NCBI GenBank assembly: GCA_018819405.1
Contig: JAHJQF010000001.1
Span: 371,277 to 435,276 of the forward strand
Length of the DNA stretch: 64,000 bases
DNA from: Patescibacteria group bacterium
Lineage (GTDB): Bacteria > Patescibacteriota > Patescibacteriia > UBA1558 > GWA2-36-10
Direction: 5' to 3'
The translations under genes were made by a program, and so were the position numbers. Positions 14,329-42,730 of this stretch are shown here, piece by piece. The notes under the pieces were generated by a model. The model saw nothing but the letters and a program-made list of their open reading frames with translations, was not told where the DNA came from and did not search any database. The stretch's first letter is position 1; the number at the start of each line of letters is the position of its first letter.

Positions 14329-14463
14329 TAAAAAATAAGACTCTGGCAGGGTTCTTTTTTTATTTACCCTGTTAAATTTTTTTTTAATGGGGTTTGACAA
14401 AAATATTTAAAAAGCAAATAATTAATAGTAATTAGGAGGAATAATAATTTAAAGTATAAATGT

Positions 14464-15252
14464 ATGTTTTTCTCTAAATTTAGATTTTTTGTAGGGTTTT
14501 TGGCTATTTTTAGTGGTATTTTGCTAATGGGAGCCAGCTGTCAAAATAATCAGGATCTTTATAATCAAAACAATAGTAATATAGTAGAAGAACAACTTGA
14601 TAACCAACCTTTAATTGGCGGTGATAAGGATGAGTATGGCTGTCTTATATCGGCAGGCTATTCTTGGTGCGAGACAAAAAATAAATGTTTGCGCACTTGG
14701 GAAGAAGAGTGCTCGGTAGTTGAAAATTCTAATCAAAATCAGACAATTCCAGTAGTTAAAACACCTGATAGTATTGTAGACTCTGTAGATTGGCAAATAT
14801 ATGAAAATAAAAAATTTGGTTATACAGTTTTGTATCCAGATAACACAGAAATTATTGCCAATAATTTAGACGAGTTTGTAGAGTTTGTGGGACCTTTGCA
14901 AGATGGAGAACGCTGGCCAAGGATTAGTATCTCACATTTTGACACCGTTGATTATCATCCGGAGGTGGGGGTCAATTTACAGGAATGGTTGGAAGATAGT
15001 ATTGGATCTTATGAGACTAGGGTTATTGGTATTGATGGAGGTATAGAAACACTACATGTTATTCAGCCACAGACAGTTGATTCTGATGGGGCAGATTATT
15101 ATTATTTTGTAAAAGACGGGCAGTTATTTAAGATTACTTTTTTGCACACTATCGGAAGTCAAGATTGGCCTATGTATATAAAATTTTTGTATAATTTCCA
15201 TTTTAATGTACCTACTACTAATGATATAGCTACCACTACTCCAGCACAATAA
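14464..15252 (+). CDS. Secreted protein / possible lipoprotein, hypothetical, cysteine-containing
   Basis: Signal peptide ending LLMGASC; no recognised domain. Confidence 0.5.
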   Translation: MFFSKFRFFVGFLAIFSGILLMGASCQNNQDLYNQNNSNIVEEQLDNQPLIGGDKDEYGCLISAGYSWCETKNKCLRTWEEECSVVENSNQNQTIPVVKTPDSIVDSVDWQIYENKKFGYTVLYPDNTEIIANNLDEFVEFVGPLQDGERWPRISISHFDTVDYHPEVGVNLQEWLEDSIGSYETRVIGIDGGIETLHVIQPQTVDSDGADYYYFVKDGQLFKITFLHTIGSQDWPMYIKFLYNFHFNVPTTNDIATTTPAQ

Positions 15253-15273
15253 TATTTTATAAATAAAAAATAG

Positions 15274-15311
15274 ACCTGCGGCGCGCTTTGGCGCGCCGCA
15301 GGTTTTGTTTT
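15274..15311. terminator. Bidirectional rho-independent terminator
   Basis: acctgcggcgcgc / gcgcgccgcaggt perfect 13-bp stem with tttg loop, flanked by A-run and T-run; separates convergent genes. Confidence 0.8.
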
Positions 15312-16374
15312 ACAGGCTATCGAGAATCTCGGTCAGCTTTTCAGCGATGACCGTAGCTACTGAGACATTTTCCACCAGACCGCCAGTCTGGTTTTCGTAA
15401 GAACGATGGATAGTGTCTCCAGCCAGGACTCGGGTGAAAGGACTGGTCCTTTTGCGACCAACCCTTCTTTTCCAGGGGGGCGAACACTTCATGTGGGTGG
15501 CGACCAGCTCTACCTGGAAAGCCTCGGCTCGCAACAGGTCGCGGCAGGTGTCAGCGGCAGTACCACCGGTATCGAGCTCATCTTCCCGCATGATGATGTA
15601 GGCGTCCTTGACGGTTTCCGAGTTGATGAGTTGGATTTCAACTCCATATTCCTGGCTTATCTTTTCGATGAAAGTCAGGTCTTGCGGTGTGGGTTCAACA
15701 TTGGTGACAATGTTGCCGGTTTCTTTGCGCTTTTTCAAGCTCAGGAGCACCGGTACGTCCAGTGACTTAGCAATGGCTACTGCCCTCAAGAGTGAACCTT
15801 TGTCCGGGGACAGAATCTTGAATTCTTTGTCGAGTTCCTTGGCCTTGGTCAGGCTGGACTTGAGAGCCGCTATGTACAACGGTGTAGGTTTGACGTGGTA
15901 GGTCTCCAGGCCGACTTGCTGGCAGTTGAGCATTGTTCTTTCGGAATGGATGTCGCAGACAAGCATACGGTCTGCTCCGTTGGCCTTGATGTTCTCCATG
16001 AACCAGAGGTTGAGGTCAAATTCTTCGGGGATCTCCGGATGATCCTGTCGTCGAAAAGCCATAAAGGGCTGAACAACGGTCAGACTCTTGGCGCCGTACT
16101 TTTTCTTGATCGCTCGGATGAGGATCAAAAGCTCCAAGACTAGGTGTGGTTTGTGGGTGCTCAGAAAGAGTACTGCGTGCTTGCCGGCGATGTCTTCCCA
16201 GCGGTCAAAACAGAAGTCAGGCTCACTGTCCGGCCACCAACCGAAATCGGTGTGGGACAGGCTGAGTGGTACTTATTTGATCCGGCGTATATTGACAGCG
16301 TCAATGATTTTTTGGGCCAGGTGGTTGGTGTCTCCGCGTCCGCAGAGCATCAGGATTTCTTCGGAGTGTGCCAT
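15310..16374 (-). pseudogene. prs: Ribose-phosphate pyrophosphokinase (PRPP synthetase, Prs family)-like gene interrupted by one in-frame TAA (minus-strand codon at 16275..16273), in a ~55% GC island
   Basis: Prs-collinear translation: MAHSEEILMLCGRGDTNHLAQKIIDAV...(TAA)...FLSTHKPHLVLELLILIRAIKKKYGAKSLTVVQPFMAFRRQD...DELDTGGTAADTC. Strong SD gggagg 5 nt before the ATG. GC content far above flanks. Confidence 0.55.
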
Positions 16375-16505
16375 TTTTGCCTCCCTGTTCATGTAAAGGA
16401 CTAGTGAAGTCCGTGTGTTGGCTTCATTACTTGCGCCTTTATATAAAACTAAATCAGACCTTTTGTCAATTTTTTATTTTTTCAAATAAATGATATAATT
16501 TTATT

Positions 16506-16940
16506 ATGAGACTTTGGAGTATACACCCTAGCTATTTGGATACCAAGGGTCTTTTGGCTCTTTGGCGCGAAAGCCTTTTAGCCAAAAAAGTTTTAAAAGG
16601 TCAAACTAAAGGGTATACAAAACATCCACAATTAGAACGCTTTAAACAAAGTGATGACCCTTTAAATCTCATCAATCATTATCTCAATTTTATTTGGCAG
16701 GAGGCGAATATTCGTGGTTACAATTTTGATCAGTCAAAAATAGAGAATTTTATCCCGACAAAAAAATTACCGGTTACCAGAGGGCAGATTATTTATGAGT
16801 TAGATCATCTAACTCATAAACTAAAAATTAGATCACCTCATTTTATCCGAGTTTTACCTCATCCAAATAAGGCTCAGACACATCCAATATTTTATGTTGT
16901 AGAGGGAGATATTGAAGCCTGGGAAAAATTATCTTTTTAG
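16506..16940 (+). CDS. Pyrimidine dimer DNA glycosylase-like protein (Pyr_excise / T4 endonuclease V-like family), tentative
   Basis: N-terminus MRLWSIHPSYLDTKGLLALWRESLLAKKVLKGQTKGYTKHPQLERF matches the conserved start of this family, from memory. Extended -10 tgatataat upstream. Confidence 0.5.
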   Translation: MRLWSIHPSYLDTKGLLALWRESLLAKKVLKGQTKGYTKHPQLERFKQSDDPLNLINHYLNFIWQEANIRGYNFDQSKIENFIPTKKLPVTRGQIIYELDHLTHKLKIRSPHFIRVLPHPNKAQTHPIFYVVEGDIEAWEKLSF

Positions 16941-17397: not shown

Positions 17398-17428
17398 CAG
17401 CCTCATATTTCGAGGCTGTTTTTTATTT
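17398..17428 (+). terminator. Rho-independent terminator
   Basis: cagcctc / gaggctg stem followed by ttttttatttg. Confidence 0.7.
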
Positions 17429-18052
17429 GTTTAATTGTTCTATTACTTCTTGGTCAGTAATCTGTCGGAAGTCAGCATAAAAATTACCAATAGCCATAAA
17501 AAGATGAGGTAAGTGTACATAAAATAATTCTTCGGATAAAGTTTGAAATTTTTCTAAGGATTCTTTGGGTAATACTGGAACAGCCAATATTATATGTTTG
17601 GCCTTTTTATTTTTAACAGATAATATAGCGGCTTGCATAGTAGAGCCGGTAGCTATGCCGTCATCAATTATTATAGCGGTTTTATATTTTAAATCTAAGG
17701 GAGTTCGGTGACCGCGGTATAGCTTTAGTCTTCTCTGGGCTTCTTTTTTTTCTTTGGTGATTTCCTCTTCAAGGTATTTCTTGTTTATACCCTCTTGAAT
17801 GATTATATCCTGGTCAAATACCGAGTATCCATCTTCGGAGATAGCTCCTATAGCAAATTCTGGGTTTTGAGGAGCGCTGATTTTTCTTGGTATTACAATA
17901 TCAAGCGGCAAGTTGAGGGTTTTTGCTACTTGGCCGGCTACTATGATACCGCCTCGAGGCAAGCCGATAATGATAGTATCTTTTTTATTTTTAAATTTTG
18001 CCAATTTTTCAGCCAATTTTTGGCCGGCGTCTTGGCGGTCTCGGAAAAACAT
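17423..18052 (-). CDS. Phosphoribosyltransferase-domain protein (PRTase type I fold)
   Basis: PRPP-binding loop AIIIDDGIATGSTM; N-terminal FxDRxDAGxxLA motif typical of stand-alone predicted PRTases. Confidence 0.7.
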   Translation of the reverse strand: MFFRDRQDAGQKLAEKLAKFKNKKDTIIIGLPRGGIIVAGQVAKTLNLPLDIVIPRKISAPQNPEFAIGAISEDGYSVFDQDIIIQEGINKKYLEEEITKEKKEAQRRLKLYRGHRTPLDLKYKTAIIIDDGIATGSTMQAAILSVKNKKAKHIILAVPVLPKESLEKFQTLSEELFYVHLPHLFMAIGNFYADFRQITDQEVIEQLNK

Positions 18053-18143: not shown

Positions 18144-18587
18144 TCAAATCAAATCGTACAGCCGGATGTCAAAGATGACTTTGCTGGCAAAATTGACTAG
18201 GGCAATGCCCACGCCGATAATCCAGCAGGTCAGCAGGAACTTGAATTGGAATTTTCTCAGACGTGGGTATTCTCTTTTTGTTCCTTTGGCTATCAGAAAC
18301 AAAAAGAGGGAGAAGAAGCCAAATAAACCAATGCCAGCCAGGCTGATATGAGTGATAAACAGCAGGCTGTGCCATGGCGCTTGGTCTGTCGAGTTCATTC
18401 GTGGTAGAGATCCTGAGGAAGCGGATACAGCCATGACGATGTCCAGGCAAATGCCTATTGTCAGCCAGAGCATGAAATGCCCTTTATTTTGGTAAAATCG
18501 GACACTGGCTATCAGGTAAGGCAGAAAGGCGATGACTTGGATGCCTATGACCCACAAATGGGCTAAATACCAGGGCGAATTTTCCAT
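18144..18587 (-). CDS. Hypothetical polytopic membrane protein (GC content ~47%, above local background)
   Basis: 4-5 predicted TM helices; no family recognised. Confidence 0.45.
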   Translation of the reverse strand: MENSPWYLAHLWVIGIQVIAFLPYLIASVRFYQNKGHFMLWLTIGICLDIVMAVSASSGSLPRMNSTDQAPWHSLLFITHISLAGIGLFGFFSLFLFLIAKGTKREYPRLRKFQFKFLLTCWIIGVGIALVNFASKVIFDIRLYDLI

Positions 18588-39763: not shown

Positions 39764-39840
39764 TCGTCCTGTAGCTCAGCTGGTTAGAGCACCACTCTTA
39801 TAAAGTGGGGGTCCTGGGTTCAAGTCCCAGCAGGACGACC
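39764..39840 (+). tRNA. tRNA-Ile with anticodon UAU (reads AUA)
   Basis: Manual fold: acceptor cgtcctg/caggacg with one G-U, D-arm gctc/gagc, anticodon stem ccact/agtgg with loop cttataa (anticodon TAT), T-arm ctggg-ttcaagt-cccag, discriminator A, encoded CCA. Confidence 0.8.
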
Positions 39841-39898
39841 AGATTGACATTTTATCCACTATTTGCTATATTTCTATCGTTAAATTTATTATCAAGAT

Positions 39899-39988: not shown

Positions 39989-40167
39989 TTTTTACCTGTC
40001 TACGGTAGGTAGGTATTTATTCAATAAAGAACCGTTTTTGCCTAGCGCGATTATTGTGGCATTAGCGGTTTTTTGTTAGGTTTAAAAGATAAAAAATCGC
40101 GCCCCCTTTTTCCAACATAGGATTAAGGGGGCGTTAGTATAGGCTGACCGCCTATTGTGTTGTAGAC

Positions 40168-40461
40168 TCAGGCCACCTTGGCCAGAGTAGGGTAGGAGGA
40201 GATCCTAGCCAAACCAGGGTCTTCAAACTGGACAGCAAAGTAGGAATCGGACATCCCGACCAGCCGGCCTTGTCTGATACCAGAAAGCCAGTAGATCCAG
40301 CGTATATCACCACGCTTGACGACCACGAAAGTGCGGCGTCCTTTGTGGATGATGGCCTTGCGTCCGGTTAGGGAATTGGTCAAGGTCAGGTCTCGGTGTA
40401 GGATAGCCGTTACGCGAGGCAGTTCCGGTAGGAGTTCTTGGAGTTTTTCCAGAGTAGACAT
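40168..40461 (-). CDS. Small basic protein, candidate RelE/ParE-like toxin partner
   Basis: 97 aa from internal ATG 40461 (MSTLEKLQ...). Segment RRTFVVVKRGDIRWIYWLSGIRQ resembles RelE/ParE-fold toxins (weak). Confidence 0.35.
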   Translation of the reverse strand: MSTLEKLQELLPELPRVTAILHRDLTLTNSLTGRKAIIHKGRRTFVVVKRGDIRWIYWLSGIRQGRLVGMSDSYFAVQFEDPGLARISSYPTLAKVA

Positions 40462-40465
40462 GAGT

Positions 40466-40708
40466 TTAGCTCCCTTCAGGCAGGCGAAGCAGCCGATTGA
40501 AGATGCTGGGGTCTTCGACAAAGCTTCGAATTTCACCAATCTGGTCAAGGTCGTAGTTGAAGTAAAGGGTGTAGGAGCCAGCTGGCAAAATGATGATTTC
40601 TTGGACTTGTCCGGTTATAGGGTCGATGACTTCAACACTGGTGTTTGTGTCCAGGACAATGGTCTTGGGATCAGCGAGGATTGACTGAAATTTTTCGGCT
40701 TGAGTCAT
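40466..40708 (-). CDS. Small acidic protein, candidate antitoxin of a two-gene toxin-antitoxin-like module (GC-rich island)
   Basis: 80 aa, pI acidic. Stop separated by 4 nt from the downstream basic ORF; SD aagggag for the downstream gene lies in its 3' end. Confidence 0.35.
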   Translation of the reverse strand: MTQAEKFQSILADPKTIVLDTNTSVEVIDPITGQVQEIIILPAGSYTLYFNYDLDQIGEIRSFVEDPSIFNRLLRLPEGS

Positions 40709-40978
40709 GACATTTTCCTCCTAGTGAAAAGAACAGATTTGAGCATAAAAAAATATTCCTTTTCAGGAATATTTAATTCACTCTATATAAATATTTTTTT
40801 CTTTGACAAATTCAGAACTGAGAAAAAATAAAAGCCCTTTATCGGGGGTCATTTTCTGATGATGGGCATATCTTTTTTTCATCTTTATAATTATAGCAAA
40901 AATAAATATTTGGTCAACTAGTCTTAAAATAAAGGGAAAATTGAAGCCCCCACCAAGATGTCTGTCTATAGTGGGGGC

Positions 40979-41176
40979 TCAAGCTTGGCCGGGGCTTAGT
41001 GATCCGTTTTGGATCAATTGGAGGTGCTGTCTCAGTGCTTGTTCAACTTCTTGGGCCGTTTCTTTCCGGCAGTAGAGGCGAGCTACATCAATCGCCGCAT
41101 GTAGGGTTTTTTCATCGGGTAGGGAGTAAAAGTTTTGGATAGCCATGGCCATGAGTTTGGCGCCGTCTTCTTGCAT
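40979..41176 (-). CDS. 65-aa hypothetical protein with canonical SD and sigma70-like promoter
   Basis: SD ggaggtga 4 nt upstream of ATG. Promoter TTGACA (41266..41261) -17 nt- TATAAA (41243..41238) on minus strand. Confidence 0.4.
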   Translation of the reverse strand: MQEDGAKLMAMAIQNFYSLPDEKTLHAAIDVARLYCRKETAQEVEQALRQHLQLIQNGSLSPGQA

Positions 41177-41306
41177 GGTTTCACCTCCTTGAGGTTTCGA
41201 GTTAAGGACAGGGCGGAGAAAAATAGAGTAATATTTATTTATAATATTAATATTGGTATTTGTCAAGAAAAGGAAGGCCGCCCGACTAGAAGCCGGGCGG
41301 CTATGT

Positions 41307-41657
41307 TTAGGAAGCATTGACAGCCTCTTCGGCATCATTGTCTTCCGATACGTCCTCGGTAGGTGTGAGTTGTGGCAGCAACTCCAGGACCTTGAGAGGC
41401 ACGATGGAAACCCTGAGACCAGGGTAGTCTTTTTGGGTGGAGGCCCAAATCCAGCTGGTTATAGATTGGCCGACCATGCGACCTTGGTCAAGCTCTTTCT
41501 TGATGACCAAGAGGTCATGAGGAAAGATAGTAGGATCTCCTGGATTGGCTATCCTGACCAACTTGTAAGTACCAGCGGCGTAGACTATTGGTTTCCCCTG
41601 GATAAGAGGGCTTGGGAACAGGGTATCCTCCTCTGTGGAAAAGTCTATGAGGTTCAT
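41307..41657 (-). CDS. 116-aa hypothetical protein (strand choice uncertain in GC-rich DNA)
   Basis: Co-oriented with all other island genes and protein-like composition. The overlapping plus-strand ORF 41253..41687 is the alternative. Confidence 0.3.
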   Translation of the reverse strand: MNLIDFSTEEDTLFPSPLIQGKPIVYAAGTYKLVRIANPGDPTIFPHDLLVIKKELDQGRMVGQSITSWIWASTQKDYPGLRVSIVPLKVLELLPQLTPTEDVSEDNDAEEAVNAS

Positions 41658-41965
41658 CGGGTGATGAGCAACGAGGGTGAAGATTAAGTGCTTTGCGACG
41701 TTGCCTCCGTGCTAGAGAAGTGAGTGAGGTGCGAGTGGCGGGGGGATATATTTTTATTATACACAAAAAATAGGATAAGGGAAATTTTTATAATTTTTAT
41801 AAAAAGAAAGCCGCCCTGGAACGTTTGGCGTTCCAGGGCGGAGGGAAAAACAAGGTCAGCTAGCTTGTACGTATCTAGGACTTGTTTTCGAATTGGCTGG
41901 GGTTGAAATCAACAACCACTATCAGTCGTTGGGGGAGATGGCAGATTTAGTATAATAGTTCCTTT

Positions 41966-42592
41966 CTAGACAGGGTAATTACCTCTGAGTCGGAGCCACT
42001 CTTCACGACCTTTGGGGCGTATAGCTTCGGAGCCGGCCAGACACAAGGGACAGTCCTGAGGTTGCCAGGTGTCAATCTGGGGAGCGATCAAGCTGATGAT
42101 CTTACGACCATCCAGATCAGATAATCCCGATCGGTTGACCAGCGCTAGAATGGTATGGCTCACAATCCCGCCTGCTTCGCTTATACCGGCGATGCTCTGG
42201 CGGGTGGTTTTGCCAGTAGTCATGACATCTTCAACCATTAGTACCCTGGTGCCAGGCTTCAGTGGAAAGCGTTTGAGCAACATCTGGTTGTCAACCTTTT
42301 CGGTGAAGCCGGCTTCCTTCTCCATACTCAGAGCCAGTTGGTAGGCCAGAGTGACGCCGCCCATGGCTGAACCAATAACCATATCATATGGACAATTGTG
42401 TAGCCAGTTGGCCTGATTGGCCAGGTGCCAGCAAGCCTTTTCCAGTAGAGCAGGGTTGCGGATAATTAGGCTACAGTTGACAAAGCCGTTGGAGTGCAGT
42501 CCACTGGTCAAAAGAGCGTGGGGACGCTGAGGATTGTTGTCGTGGAGCCACAGGGCACCGGTTTGTTTGAAGACTTCCAGCCACATGAACAT
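41966..42592 (-). CDS. Orotate phosphoribosyltransferase-like PRTase (PyrE family), in GC-rich island
   Basis: PRPP loop VLMVEDVMTTGKTTRQSIAGISEAGG and DMVIGSAMGGVTLAYQLA segment are collinear with PyrE. Confidence 0.6.
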   Translation of the reverse strand: MFMWLEVFKQTGALWLHDNNPQRPHALLTSGLHSNGFVNCSLIIRNPALLEKACWHLANQANWLHNCPYDMVIGSAMGGVTLAYQLALSMEKEAGFTEKVDNQMLLKRFPLKPGTRVLMVEDVMTTGKTTRQSIAGISEAGGIVSHTILALVNRSGLSDLDGRKIISLIAPQIDTWQPQDCPLCLAGSEAIRPKGREEWLRLRGNYPV

Positions 42593-42679
42593 GATTTAGC
42601 CTTTCTGTTGGGAGTGAACTATTTTTGACAAGCTAGCGCCTTGTCTGTTTTTCGGACTAATTTTTCTATATTTAATGAT

Positions 42680-42730
42680 TTTTGTCAATTGATAAAGCTT
42701 TTTTAATTTTGAGAAATAAGGTAAAATATA
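42680..42730 (+). repeat. 51-nt direct repeat copy 1 (promoter-like: ttgtca ... taaaatata)
   Basis: Identical to 42832..42882 except one base (g/c). Confidence 0.8.

Follow-up and report, generated by a model that had tools for sequence, protein, structure and literature searches.

A GC-rich Prs-family gene in a Patescibacteria genome, probably long resident and recently interrupted by a nonsense codon

Results

A Prs-family reading frame with its own promoter, leader, and terminator

The 64,000-nucleotide stretch of DNA analyzed here, hereafter the window, comes from contig JAHJQF010000001.1 of a Patescibacteria group bacterium and carries on its minus strand a Prs-family, that is phosphoribosyl pyrophosphate (PRPP) synthetase-like, reading frame at 15310..16374. 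The frame opens at the ATG at 16374, comprises 354 sense positions followed by a terminal TAA (15312..15310), and contains a single internal TAA. Translation confirmed that it is Prs-like on both sides of this internal stop, which falls at codon 34, as an earlier reading of the letters alone (the sequence-only reading) had described. The truncated, 275-residue open reading frame (ORF) corresponds to the NCBI protein MBU1202798.1 (KKH39_02015), which is annotated as hypothetical.

The frame is flanked by a set of putative expression signals. On the upstream side, a minus-strand −35 element, TTGACAAAA, at 16461..16469 (including TTGACA at 16469..16464) is invariant in all aligned loci, and an 18-nt spacer separates it from a −10-like hexamer, TATATA, at 16440..16445, which reads TAnATA in all loci. 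This promoter had been assigned to the next gene but is the prs-like gene's own. From the position of the −10 hexamer, a 5′ leader of ∼58 nt (16375..16433) was deduced, which contains a conserved box, GTCCTTTACA, at 16392..16401 (family consensus GTYCTTYACA) whose 5′ part is able to pair with GGAC at 16412..16409. A Shine-Dalgarno (SD) sequence, GGGAGG, is located at 16380..16385, 5 nt upstream of the ATG. The upstream regions of all homologous loci are alignable and share TTGACAAAA, TAnATA, a leader of ∼55 to 70 nt, GTYCTTYACA, and a GGAGG-type SD. In the window, TTGACAAAA has 12 matches compared to 2 expected from shuffles (e.g., at 14394, 16461, and 42680) and it also precedes the neighboring gene at 14464 and a GC-rich phosphoribosyltransferase (PRTase) gene, and can be regarded as an extended −35-type promoter motif of this organism. 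Because the motif is general in this genome, the prs-like promoter is of native type. On the downstream side, a GC-rich hairpin of 13 to 15 pairs with T-runs on both strands spans 15272..15305, in agreement with the bidirectional terminator proposed from the letters alone. It is predicted to end transcription of the prs-like gene, and probably that of the convergent gene at 14464..15252 as well.

A separate clade with the Prs fold

The frame matches the Pfam family Pribosyltran_N (PF13793; 5e-7, 29.9 bits against a cutoff of 25), and its best sequence matches in the PDB are PRPP synthetases without exception. However, the score of 100 bits with TIGR01251 is under the cutoff of 113, and the NCBIfam equivalog models return only 39 to 72 bits against cutoffs of 296 to 536. 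Since the curated Prs thresholds are not reached, the gene belongs to a separate clade and is no standard Prs ortholog, which bears out the earlier description of a divergent Prs-family gene. When 5.8 billion clusters were searched by word index, no more than 15 other close proteins came up, 59 to 77% identical, all of which are 348 to 370 residues long and uninterrupted. A full hidden Markov model (HMM) scan of 1.84 billion representatives delineated a distinct clade of ∼50 clusters, each of which aligns over its full length in a single match at E < 1e-30; for canonical Prs proteins, the alignment to the clade HMM is always split into two pieces, with 70 to 115 bits. The named clade members are Patescibacteria or Parcubacteria, and judging from these searches the clade is so far known solely from Patescibacteria. 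For comparison, ten loci encoding homologs were fetched first, and loci from genome and metagenome collections and two more distant relatives were added afterwards, the genome and metagenome scans contributing few extra family loci. Fetched loci are designated by L numbers, and the homolog used for modeling is referred to as P0001. A check for a second native prs, which the sequence-only reading had proposed, was carried out within this scope: none is present in the window, which represents 64 kb of a ∼1.03-Mb genome, or in any fetched locus. A defense-system or phage origin was also considered and rejected, as PADLOC gave no defense-system match, the generic Prs family was the sole match in PHROGs, and no viral contig was found to encode a relative.

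An AlphaFold2 model of P0001, which is 77% identical to the window protein, was obtained with a mean predicted local distance difference test score (pLDDT) of 87 and a predicted template modeling (TM) score of 0.83. The model superposes over its full length on the PRPP synthetases of human, E. coli, B. subtilis, and other organisms with target-normalized TM-scores of 0.8 to 0.89 (E 1e-17 and up to 0.89 against PRPS structures), and it contains two type-I phosphoribosyltransferase-like domains (Pribosyltran_N and Pribosyltran) in the Prs fold. The Prs motifs RRQD (residues 108–111), DIH (141–143), and SPD (189–191), together with KKR of the flexible loop (214–216) and EDELDTGGT (264–272), are kept in the window copy and are invariant across the family. 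The FxDGE-type hairpin reads W47-P-D-S-E51 in the window copy and FPDGE in most relatives. HMMER alignments to PDB chains agree with the B. subtilis reference sequence used in this comparison. It had been suggested that the segment HTDFGWWPDSEPDFCFDRWED replaces the flexible loop. Instead, this segment aligns with the N-terminal FxDGE nucleotide-binding hairpin, and the flexible loop, KKRKETGN, is present at residues 214 to 221. The loop is followed by a family-specific 29-residue insertion (residues 227–255, EPTPQDLTFIEKISQEYGVEIQLINSETV; 15610..15696 on the minus strand), which is modeled as a helix plus a strand with pLDDT > 90. The intact relatives would be expected to have PRPP-synthetase activity, converting ATP and ribose 5-phosphate to PRPP and AMP.

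A premature stop codon in an otherwise conserved gene

The in-frame TAA at codon 34 (16273..16275, minus strand) occupies a position that is a sense codon in all homologs, most commonly Gln (CAA/CAG) and otherwise Glu, Lys, or His. Directly before it, AAA (Lys33, 16276..16278) replaces a Gly that is invariant in the 14 to 15 closest family members, a replacement that requires two further base changes. All of the ∼20 other family copies are intact and none has this stop. Over the 112 family-invariant columns that were compared with intact copies, no relaxed constraint was seen elsewhere in the gene: the window copy deviates at 4 of them and the intact copies at 0 to 7.

An assembly error, which the sequence-only reading had offered as one explanation, is unlikely to account for the stop. 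A Logan contig (L019, 49,922 bp) assembled from run SRR6514730 is 100% identical over 1311 bp, including the codons ATC AAA TAA GTA, and the cluster of truncated proteins contains equally truncated calls from the NCBI (1,035,212 bp), JGI/IMG (847,426 bp), and ENA (1,035,872 bp) assemblies. In addition, the site lies outside any homopolymer. The stop is genuine in the consensus of this population.

TAA is also the ordinary terminator of this genome, ending 37 of the 51 window ORFs, and no suppressor tRNA is present among the five tRNAs of the window. With the stop absent from homologs as well, programmed recoding or codon reassignment was ruled out, as had been anticipated. No ATG, GTG, or TTG is close to the stop; the next in-frame start is TTG 16137, 46 codons downstream and past the FxDGE motif. 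Because the rest of the gene is without extra decay, the window copy is most likely a young nonsense allele that was recently inactivated, which agrees with the status proposed from the letters alone, and it would have lost its function.

A family-wide GC-rich codon usage

The ORF has a GC content of 0.524 and a third-position GC content (GC3) of 0.64, compared to a GC content of 0.365 for the rest of the window and GC3 values of 0.24 to 0.38 for ordinary window genes. In 200-nt intervals, GC is 0.485 to 0.58 inside the gene and ∼0.33 on either side. The GC step noted earlier is therefore real, but the gene is at ∼52% GC and not at the ∼55% first given. The same contrast is seen throughout the family. 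In the ten first-fetched loci, the gene (GC 0.44–0.55) is GC-richer than its flanks (0.35–0.39) in every case, and across 18 nonredundant loci its GC3 is 0.37 to 0.67 as compared to a flank GC of 0.34 to 0.39 or a neighbor GC3 of 0.24 to 0.42. In the loci added from genome and metagenome collections, as in the two more distant relatives, the gene again exceeds its flanks in GC. On the short contig L023, unlike in every other locus, the DNA upstream of the prs-like gene (1–1533) is GC-rich as well (0.51).

The shift in codon usage is chiefly from T-ending to C-ending codons (NNT to NNC). The frequency of ATC rises from 0.14 to 0.68, that of ACC from 0.20 to 0.65, and that of TTC from 0.09 to 0.58; CTG, CCG, and AAG are also up, and GCG, ACG, GGG, GTG, and GAG are nearly flat. 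Accordingly, third-position C/(C+T) is 0.73 in the prs-like gene versus 0.26 to 0.47 in minus-strand window genes, and third-position G/(G+A) is 0.48 versus ∼0.15. This pattern is better explained by selection on particular codons than by a general GC drive. A conserved antisense ORF was rejected as the source of the GC-richness, as the alternative frames all contain stops at nonconserved positions and the open −1 frame is an expected byproduct of the avoidance of TTA, CTA, and TCA. With regard to strand, most genes lie on the plus strand and GC skew is positive across nearly all 64 kb; third positions of minus-strand window genes are clearly richer in C and poorer in G, and the GC-rich genes of the window are all on the minus strand.

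Synteny and co-divergence with the neighboring genes

Three of the fetched loci, L008, L017, and L018, hold the prs-like gene at the same locus as the window. The common block consists of a type-II-secretion F protein, a 158-aa gene, a 632- to 636-aa LVIVD protein, a 182-aa gene, a PA14 protein, and a secreted protein, after which come the prs-like gene and then cytochrome b5 and a Xer-type integrase. The proteins encoded in the flanks of these loci are only 33 to 69% identical to their window counterparts and are about equally diverged in all comparisons among the window, L008, L017, and L018. The prs-like protein is 76% identical to the window protein in L008 and 44% in L017 and L018, and the identity between L017 and L018 is 0.73.

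Synonymous divergence was compared in three syntenic pairs. At 4-fold degenerate sites where the encoded amino acid is the same, we calculated by how much similarity exceeds that expected from composition. This residual similarity in the prs-like gene and the pooled flanks was 0.16 and 0.09 for window/L008, 0.21 and 0.19 for L017/L018, and 0.32 and 0.22 for L005/L009. The prs-like gene has diverged along with its neighbors, nearly to saturation. Nevertheless, the GC content of 4-fold sites (GC4) in these pairs is 0.57 to 0.66 for the prs-like genes versus 0.29 to 0.42 for the flanks. Should the share of ancestral synonymous states kept by each lineage be only ∼0.3 to 0.45, neutral decay to 0.3 would require an ancestral GC4 of ∼1. 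Since such a value is not credible, the composition appears to have been actively maintained.

The recent horizontal acquisition that the sequence-only reading had favored was rejected, given that L008, L017, and L018 share the locus of the gene, its 4-fold sites have diverged like those of the flanks, and its GC-richness is family-wide. The homology search for a donor lineage that had been recommended yielded only Patescibacteria-type relatives: no GC-rich donor was found among the 5.8 billion clusters or the 1.84 billion representatives, and the relatives that were found are all on AT-rich Patescibacteria-type contigs. No mobility genes and no meaningful flanking direct repeats were found at the locus, where only AT-rich chance repeats occur, and the Xer-type integrase close by has syntenic counterparts in the relatives.

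Gene content in the interval that separates the prs-like gene from the Xer integrase differs among the syntenic relatives, and this spot is locally plastic. The interval encodes a pyrimidine-dimer glycosylase and a 209-aa PRTase in the window (16506–16940 and 17423–18052), whereas a DUF1003 gene is present in L008 and a deoxynucleoside kinase gene together with a PBP-family gene in L017 and L018.

GC-rich, SD-led genes in an SD-poor genome

The strong SD of the prs-like gene had been called atypical for native genes, and the counts agree: GGAGG is found upstream of only 2 of the 51 window genes, and 45 of the 51 are without an SD-like 4-mer at −20 to −4. The upstream regions of the SD-less window genes are A/T-rich. 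When the window was pooled with 15 nonredundant loci, GGAGG preceded 9 of the 23 ORFs with a GC3 of at least 0.5 versus 4 of 186 others, and two of those four are prs-like copies with intermediate GC3.

Another gene of this kind, at 18144..18587 on the minus strand, encodes a predicted membrane protein of 147 residues with no Pfam match and has a GC3 of 0.57 and one of the two GGAGG SDs of the window. Its orthologs in L017 (3969–4412) and L018 (3788–4231) are 65 to 72% identical to the window copy, lie in the same syntenic block, and are SD-led with a GC3 of 0.53 to 0.64. Each of these genes has its own TTGACA promoter and GC-rich terminator, and their divergence is concordant. A UPRTase gene in L004 is a further GC-rich, SD-led member of the class, to which the PRTase-like gene and the two-gene operon described next also belong.

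A second GC-rich island (GC 0.45–0.55) is present at 40100 to 42700 of the window. It contains a PRTase-like gene (41966..42592, minus strand; GC3 0.60) with TTGACAAAA at 42680, the only gene of the island with a Pfam match, and further minus-strand ORFs at 40979..41338 and 41307..41657. The region 40168..40708 was considered as a disrupted GC-rich gene, but this was rejected: it is a two-gene operon without a frameshift, in which an 80-aa ORF (40466..40708) is followed by a 97-aa ORF running from ATG 40470 to 40168, each with an SD, the second ATG having its own GGGAG. A tRNA-Ile with the anticodon TAT (UAU) is encoded at 39765–39841 on the plus strand. A UAU-anticodon tRNA-Ile is an uncommon bacterial route to reading AUA, a codon that accounts for 41% of the Ile codons of native window genes.

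A YCTTYACA box lies directly 5′ of the SD in all prs-like leaders, and similar boxes (ACTTTACAAGGAGG, CCCTACAAGGAGG, GTTCTTTTCACTAGGAGG) were found in some unrelated GC-rich, SD-led genes, at sites upstream of 7725 in L015, upstream of 8300 in L004, and upstream of 40708 in the window. The box may be a shared translational operator. A known riboswitch or cis-regulatory RNA in the prs-like leader was rejected, as Rfam gave no credible match (noise only at E up to 10) and single-sequence folds of the leader were no better than shuffles (z −0.3 to −0.6). RNAalifold returned only a 5-pair CCUUY:GGAGG helix without covariation. Of the 18 leaders, 12 can form a hairpin of 4 to 6 pairs with its 3′ arm in the box, and L002 provides the one compensatory variant (GAAC/GTTC); with few added loci, the covariation analysis is underpowered, and this small hairpin is suggestive only. 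No homolog of CsrA, a candidate binder of the ACA..GGA leader, was found in the sequence of the window and fetched loci, which is uninformative for whole genomes.

Discussion

A probable resident gene with a putative young nonsense allele

Starting from direct observations (the anatomy of the unit, its synteny and composition, its co-divergence with the neighboring genes, and the reproducibility of the stop), we consider it probable that this is a long-resident gene of a Patescibacteria Prs clade with a maintained GC-rich codon syndrome that was recently inactivated by a nonsense allele in this population. The gene would be a single-gene transcription unit in which the ORF is preceded by a consensus-like promoter, a ∼58-nt leader, and a strong SD and followed by a strong terminator. 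Its GC-richness would be a codon-usage syndrome (NNT to NNC plus CTG, CCG, and AAG) that selection or a gene-specific bias keeps in place, and as the syndrome persists despite synonymous turnover like that of the neighbors, it appears to be held rather than to be a remnant of import. The likeliest cause of the bias may be translation or mRNA selection on a strongly initiated, SD-led transcript in a nearly SD-less genome. In the window copy, codon 34, at which the family most often has Gln (CAA/CAG), would have changed to TAA and the adjacent Gly33 to Lys. Translation would then end after 33 residues, ahead of the FxDGE-type nucleotide-binding motif, and a restart at TTG 16137 would give the 275-residue product without this motif.

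Several points weigh against this reading or limit it. Protein distances are discordant, in that the prs-like identity between syntenic pairs is 0.44 while that of the flanks is 0.33 to 0.68; these distances could reflect a burst of change or the in-situ replacement of the gene by one of another subfamily, and a replacement of this kind may have broken strict vertical descent. A strand effect contributes to the C excess, since minus-strand genes are somewhat C-rich anyway. Ribosomal protein S15 and polynucleotide phosphorylase in L017 and L018 are not GC3-rich, and therefore a simple account based on high expression is incomplete. Finally, the evidence for the stop is at the level of the consensus, so that a minority intact allele or a shared read artifact is possible, and the three assemblies may share the same or related samples.

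On account of the discordant distances, we considered as a rival reading recurrent transfer of the gene as a cassette among Patescibacteria, including replacement at the same locus, with GC-biased gene conversion rather than selection on codons or mRNA maintaining the GC-richness. Gene contexts do vary among most loci, the unit is self-contained in having a promoter and a terminator to itself, and identities of 0.76 and 0.73 within pairs but 0.44 between them, with flanks that barely differ, suggest subfamily replacement. We nonetheless regard this scenario as unlikely, because the synonymous divergence of the gene equals that of the flanks in three syntenic pairs, the shift favors C-ending codons with GCG, ACG, GGG, and GAG hardly up, and the search for mobility genes, flanking direct repeats, and viral copies turned up none; the second GC-rich gene in the block, that of the 147-residue protein, also diverges concordantly. 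A recent acquisition from a GC-richer donor followed by inactivation would explain the atypical GC, the atypical SD, and the sharp composition borders. It is scarcely plausible for a gene that shares its locus with relatives whose flanking proteins are 33 to 69% identical, whose 4-fold sites are as near to saturation as those of the flanks, whose relatives are all on AT-rich Patescibacteria-type contigs with no GC-rich donor in the databases scanned, and whose promoter carries the genome's own TTGACAAAA motif.

The remaining alternatives concern the stop itself. That the rest of the gene is conserved as well as in intact copies, and that the evidence is at the assembly level, would fit a sequencing or consensus artifact or a minority allele, with the gene intact in most cells. 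This is very unlikely in view of an independent assembly that is identical over all 1311 bp, truncated products from three gene callers on three assemblies, and a non-homopolymer site next to a Gly33-to-Lys replacement that needs two further base changes. The lack of other decay and the conserved expression signals could be taken to mean that the gene is still functional, with readthrough, re-initiation, or a split product allowing it to get past the stop. Such a bypass is more doubtful still: the stop is absent from every homolog, TAA is the main genuine stop here, the window has no suppressor tRNA, and the nearest start codon is 46 codons on, beyond the FxDGE motif.

A possible regulon and its significance

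More speculatively, and as an idea we would not favor at present, SD-poor, AT-rich Patescibacteria might keep a small conserved set of single-gene units as a separately translated or regulated regulon. Its units would have a strong SD, C-ending GC-rich codons, a YCTTYACA box in several cases, and strong terminators, and the members seen would include the Prs-like enzyme, PRTase and UPRTase genes, the 147-residue membrane protein, and several small proteins. Control could be exerted via anti-SD availability (compare bS21 in Bacteroidia) or a leader-binding protein. Under a regulon of this type, the expression mode would be selected for and the synonymous composition held as a result.

The combination of a GC step and a stop codon resembles a dead import, but the gene is resident, and the case is therefore a warning for annotation: an import reading of compositional islands in candidate-phyla genomes is unsafe without checking relatives. 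PRPP is the entry point to nucleotide salvage for organisms that are unable to make nucleotides. If no second prs exists, a population losing its Prs-like gene may rely on its host for PRPP-derived products. Synonymous sites near 60% GC in a 30% background through saturation would represent a clean case of non-neutral synonymous composition, and through the link to rare SD sites, translation control in Patescibacteria becomes open to testing. While the pseudogene is ordinary, the maintained class of GC-rich, SD-led genes is the part worth pursuing.

Comparison with known systems

The Prs-like family has the same two-domain fold as class I PRPP synthetases (Prs/PRPS; TIGR01251; PDB 1DKR, 8DBE, and 6ASV) and a similar length, and it shares the FxDGE-like, RQD, DxH, and SPDxG motifs, the KxR flexible loop, and the DxxDTxGT ribose 5-phosphate loop. 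It differs in having only ∼20% identity, a 29-residue insertion after the flexible loop, a ∼8-residue extra segment before the FxDGE hairpin, EDE instead of DD in the ribose 5-phosphate loop, and five invariant cysteines.

A PRPS-like enzyme with a different activity is phage Adps, the ADP-ribose pyrophosphokinase of NARP1, which demonstrates that divergent Prs paralogs can use other acceptors (PMC13586617, bioRxiv 10.1101/2024.02.11.579819). Both have a PRPS-like scaffold that keeps acceptor-site residues. However, no Namat partner lies beside any prs-like copy in the loci analyzed, no viral copies were found, and the PHROG match is to generic Prs, and an Adps/NARP1 reading was rejected on the basis of gene context. 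Horizontally acquired GC islands likewise resemble the locus in their sharp GC step and atypical codon usage, but the prs-like gene is syntenic with saturated synonymous sites, has no mobility features, and shows the anomaly family-wide.

With respect to translation, the closest parallel is found in the Bacteroidia, in which SDs are generally unused and rpsU retains a strong one (PMC7797042, PMC9976891, PMC13000453). Although the phylum and the genes are different and the coupling to GC-rich codons is absent from the Bacteroidia case, rpsU of Flavobacterium johnsoniae and the genes described here are alike in that an SD-poor genome has kept a strong, conserved SD in very few genes.

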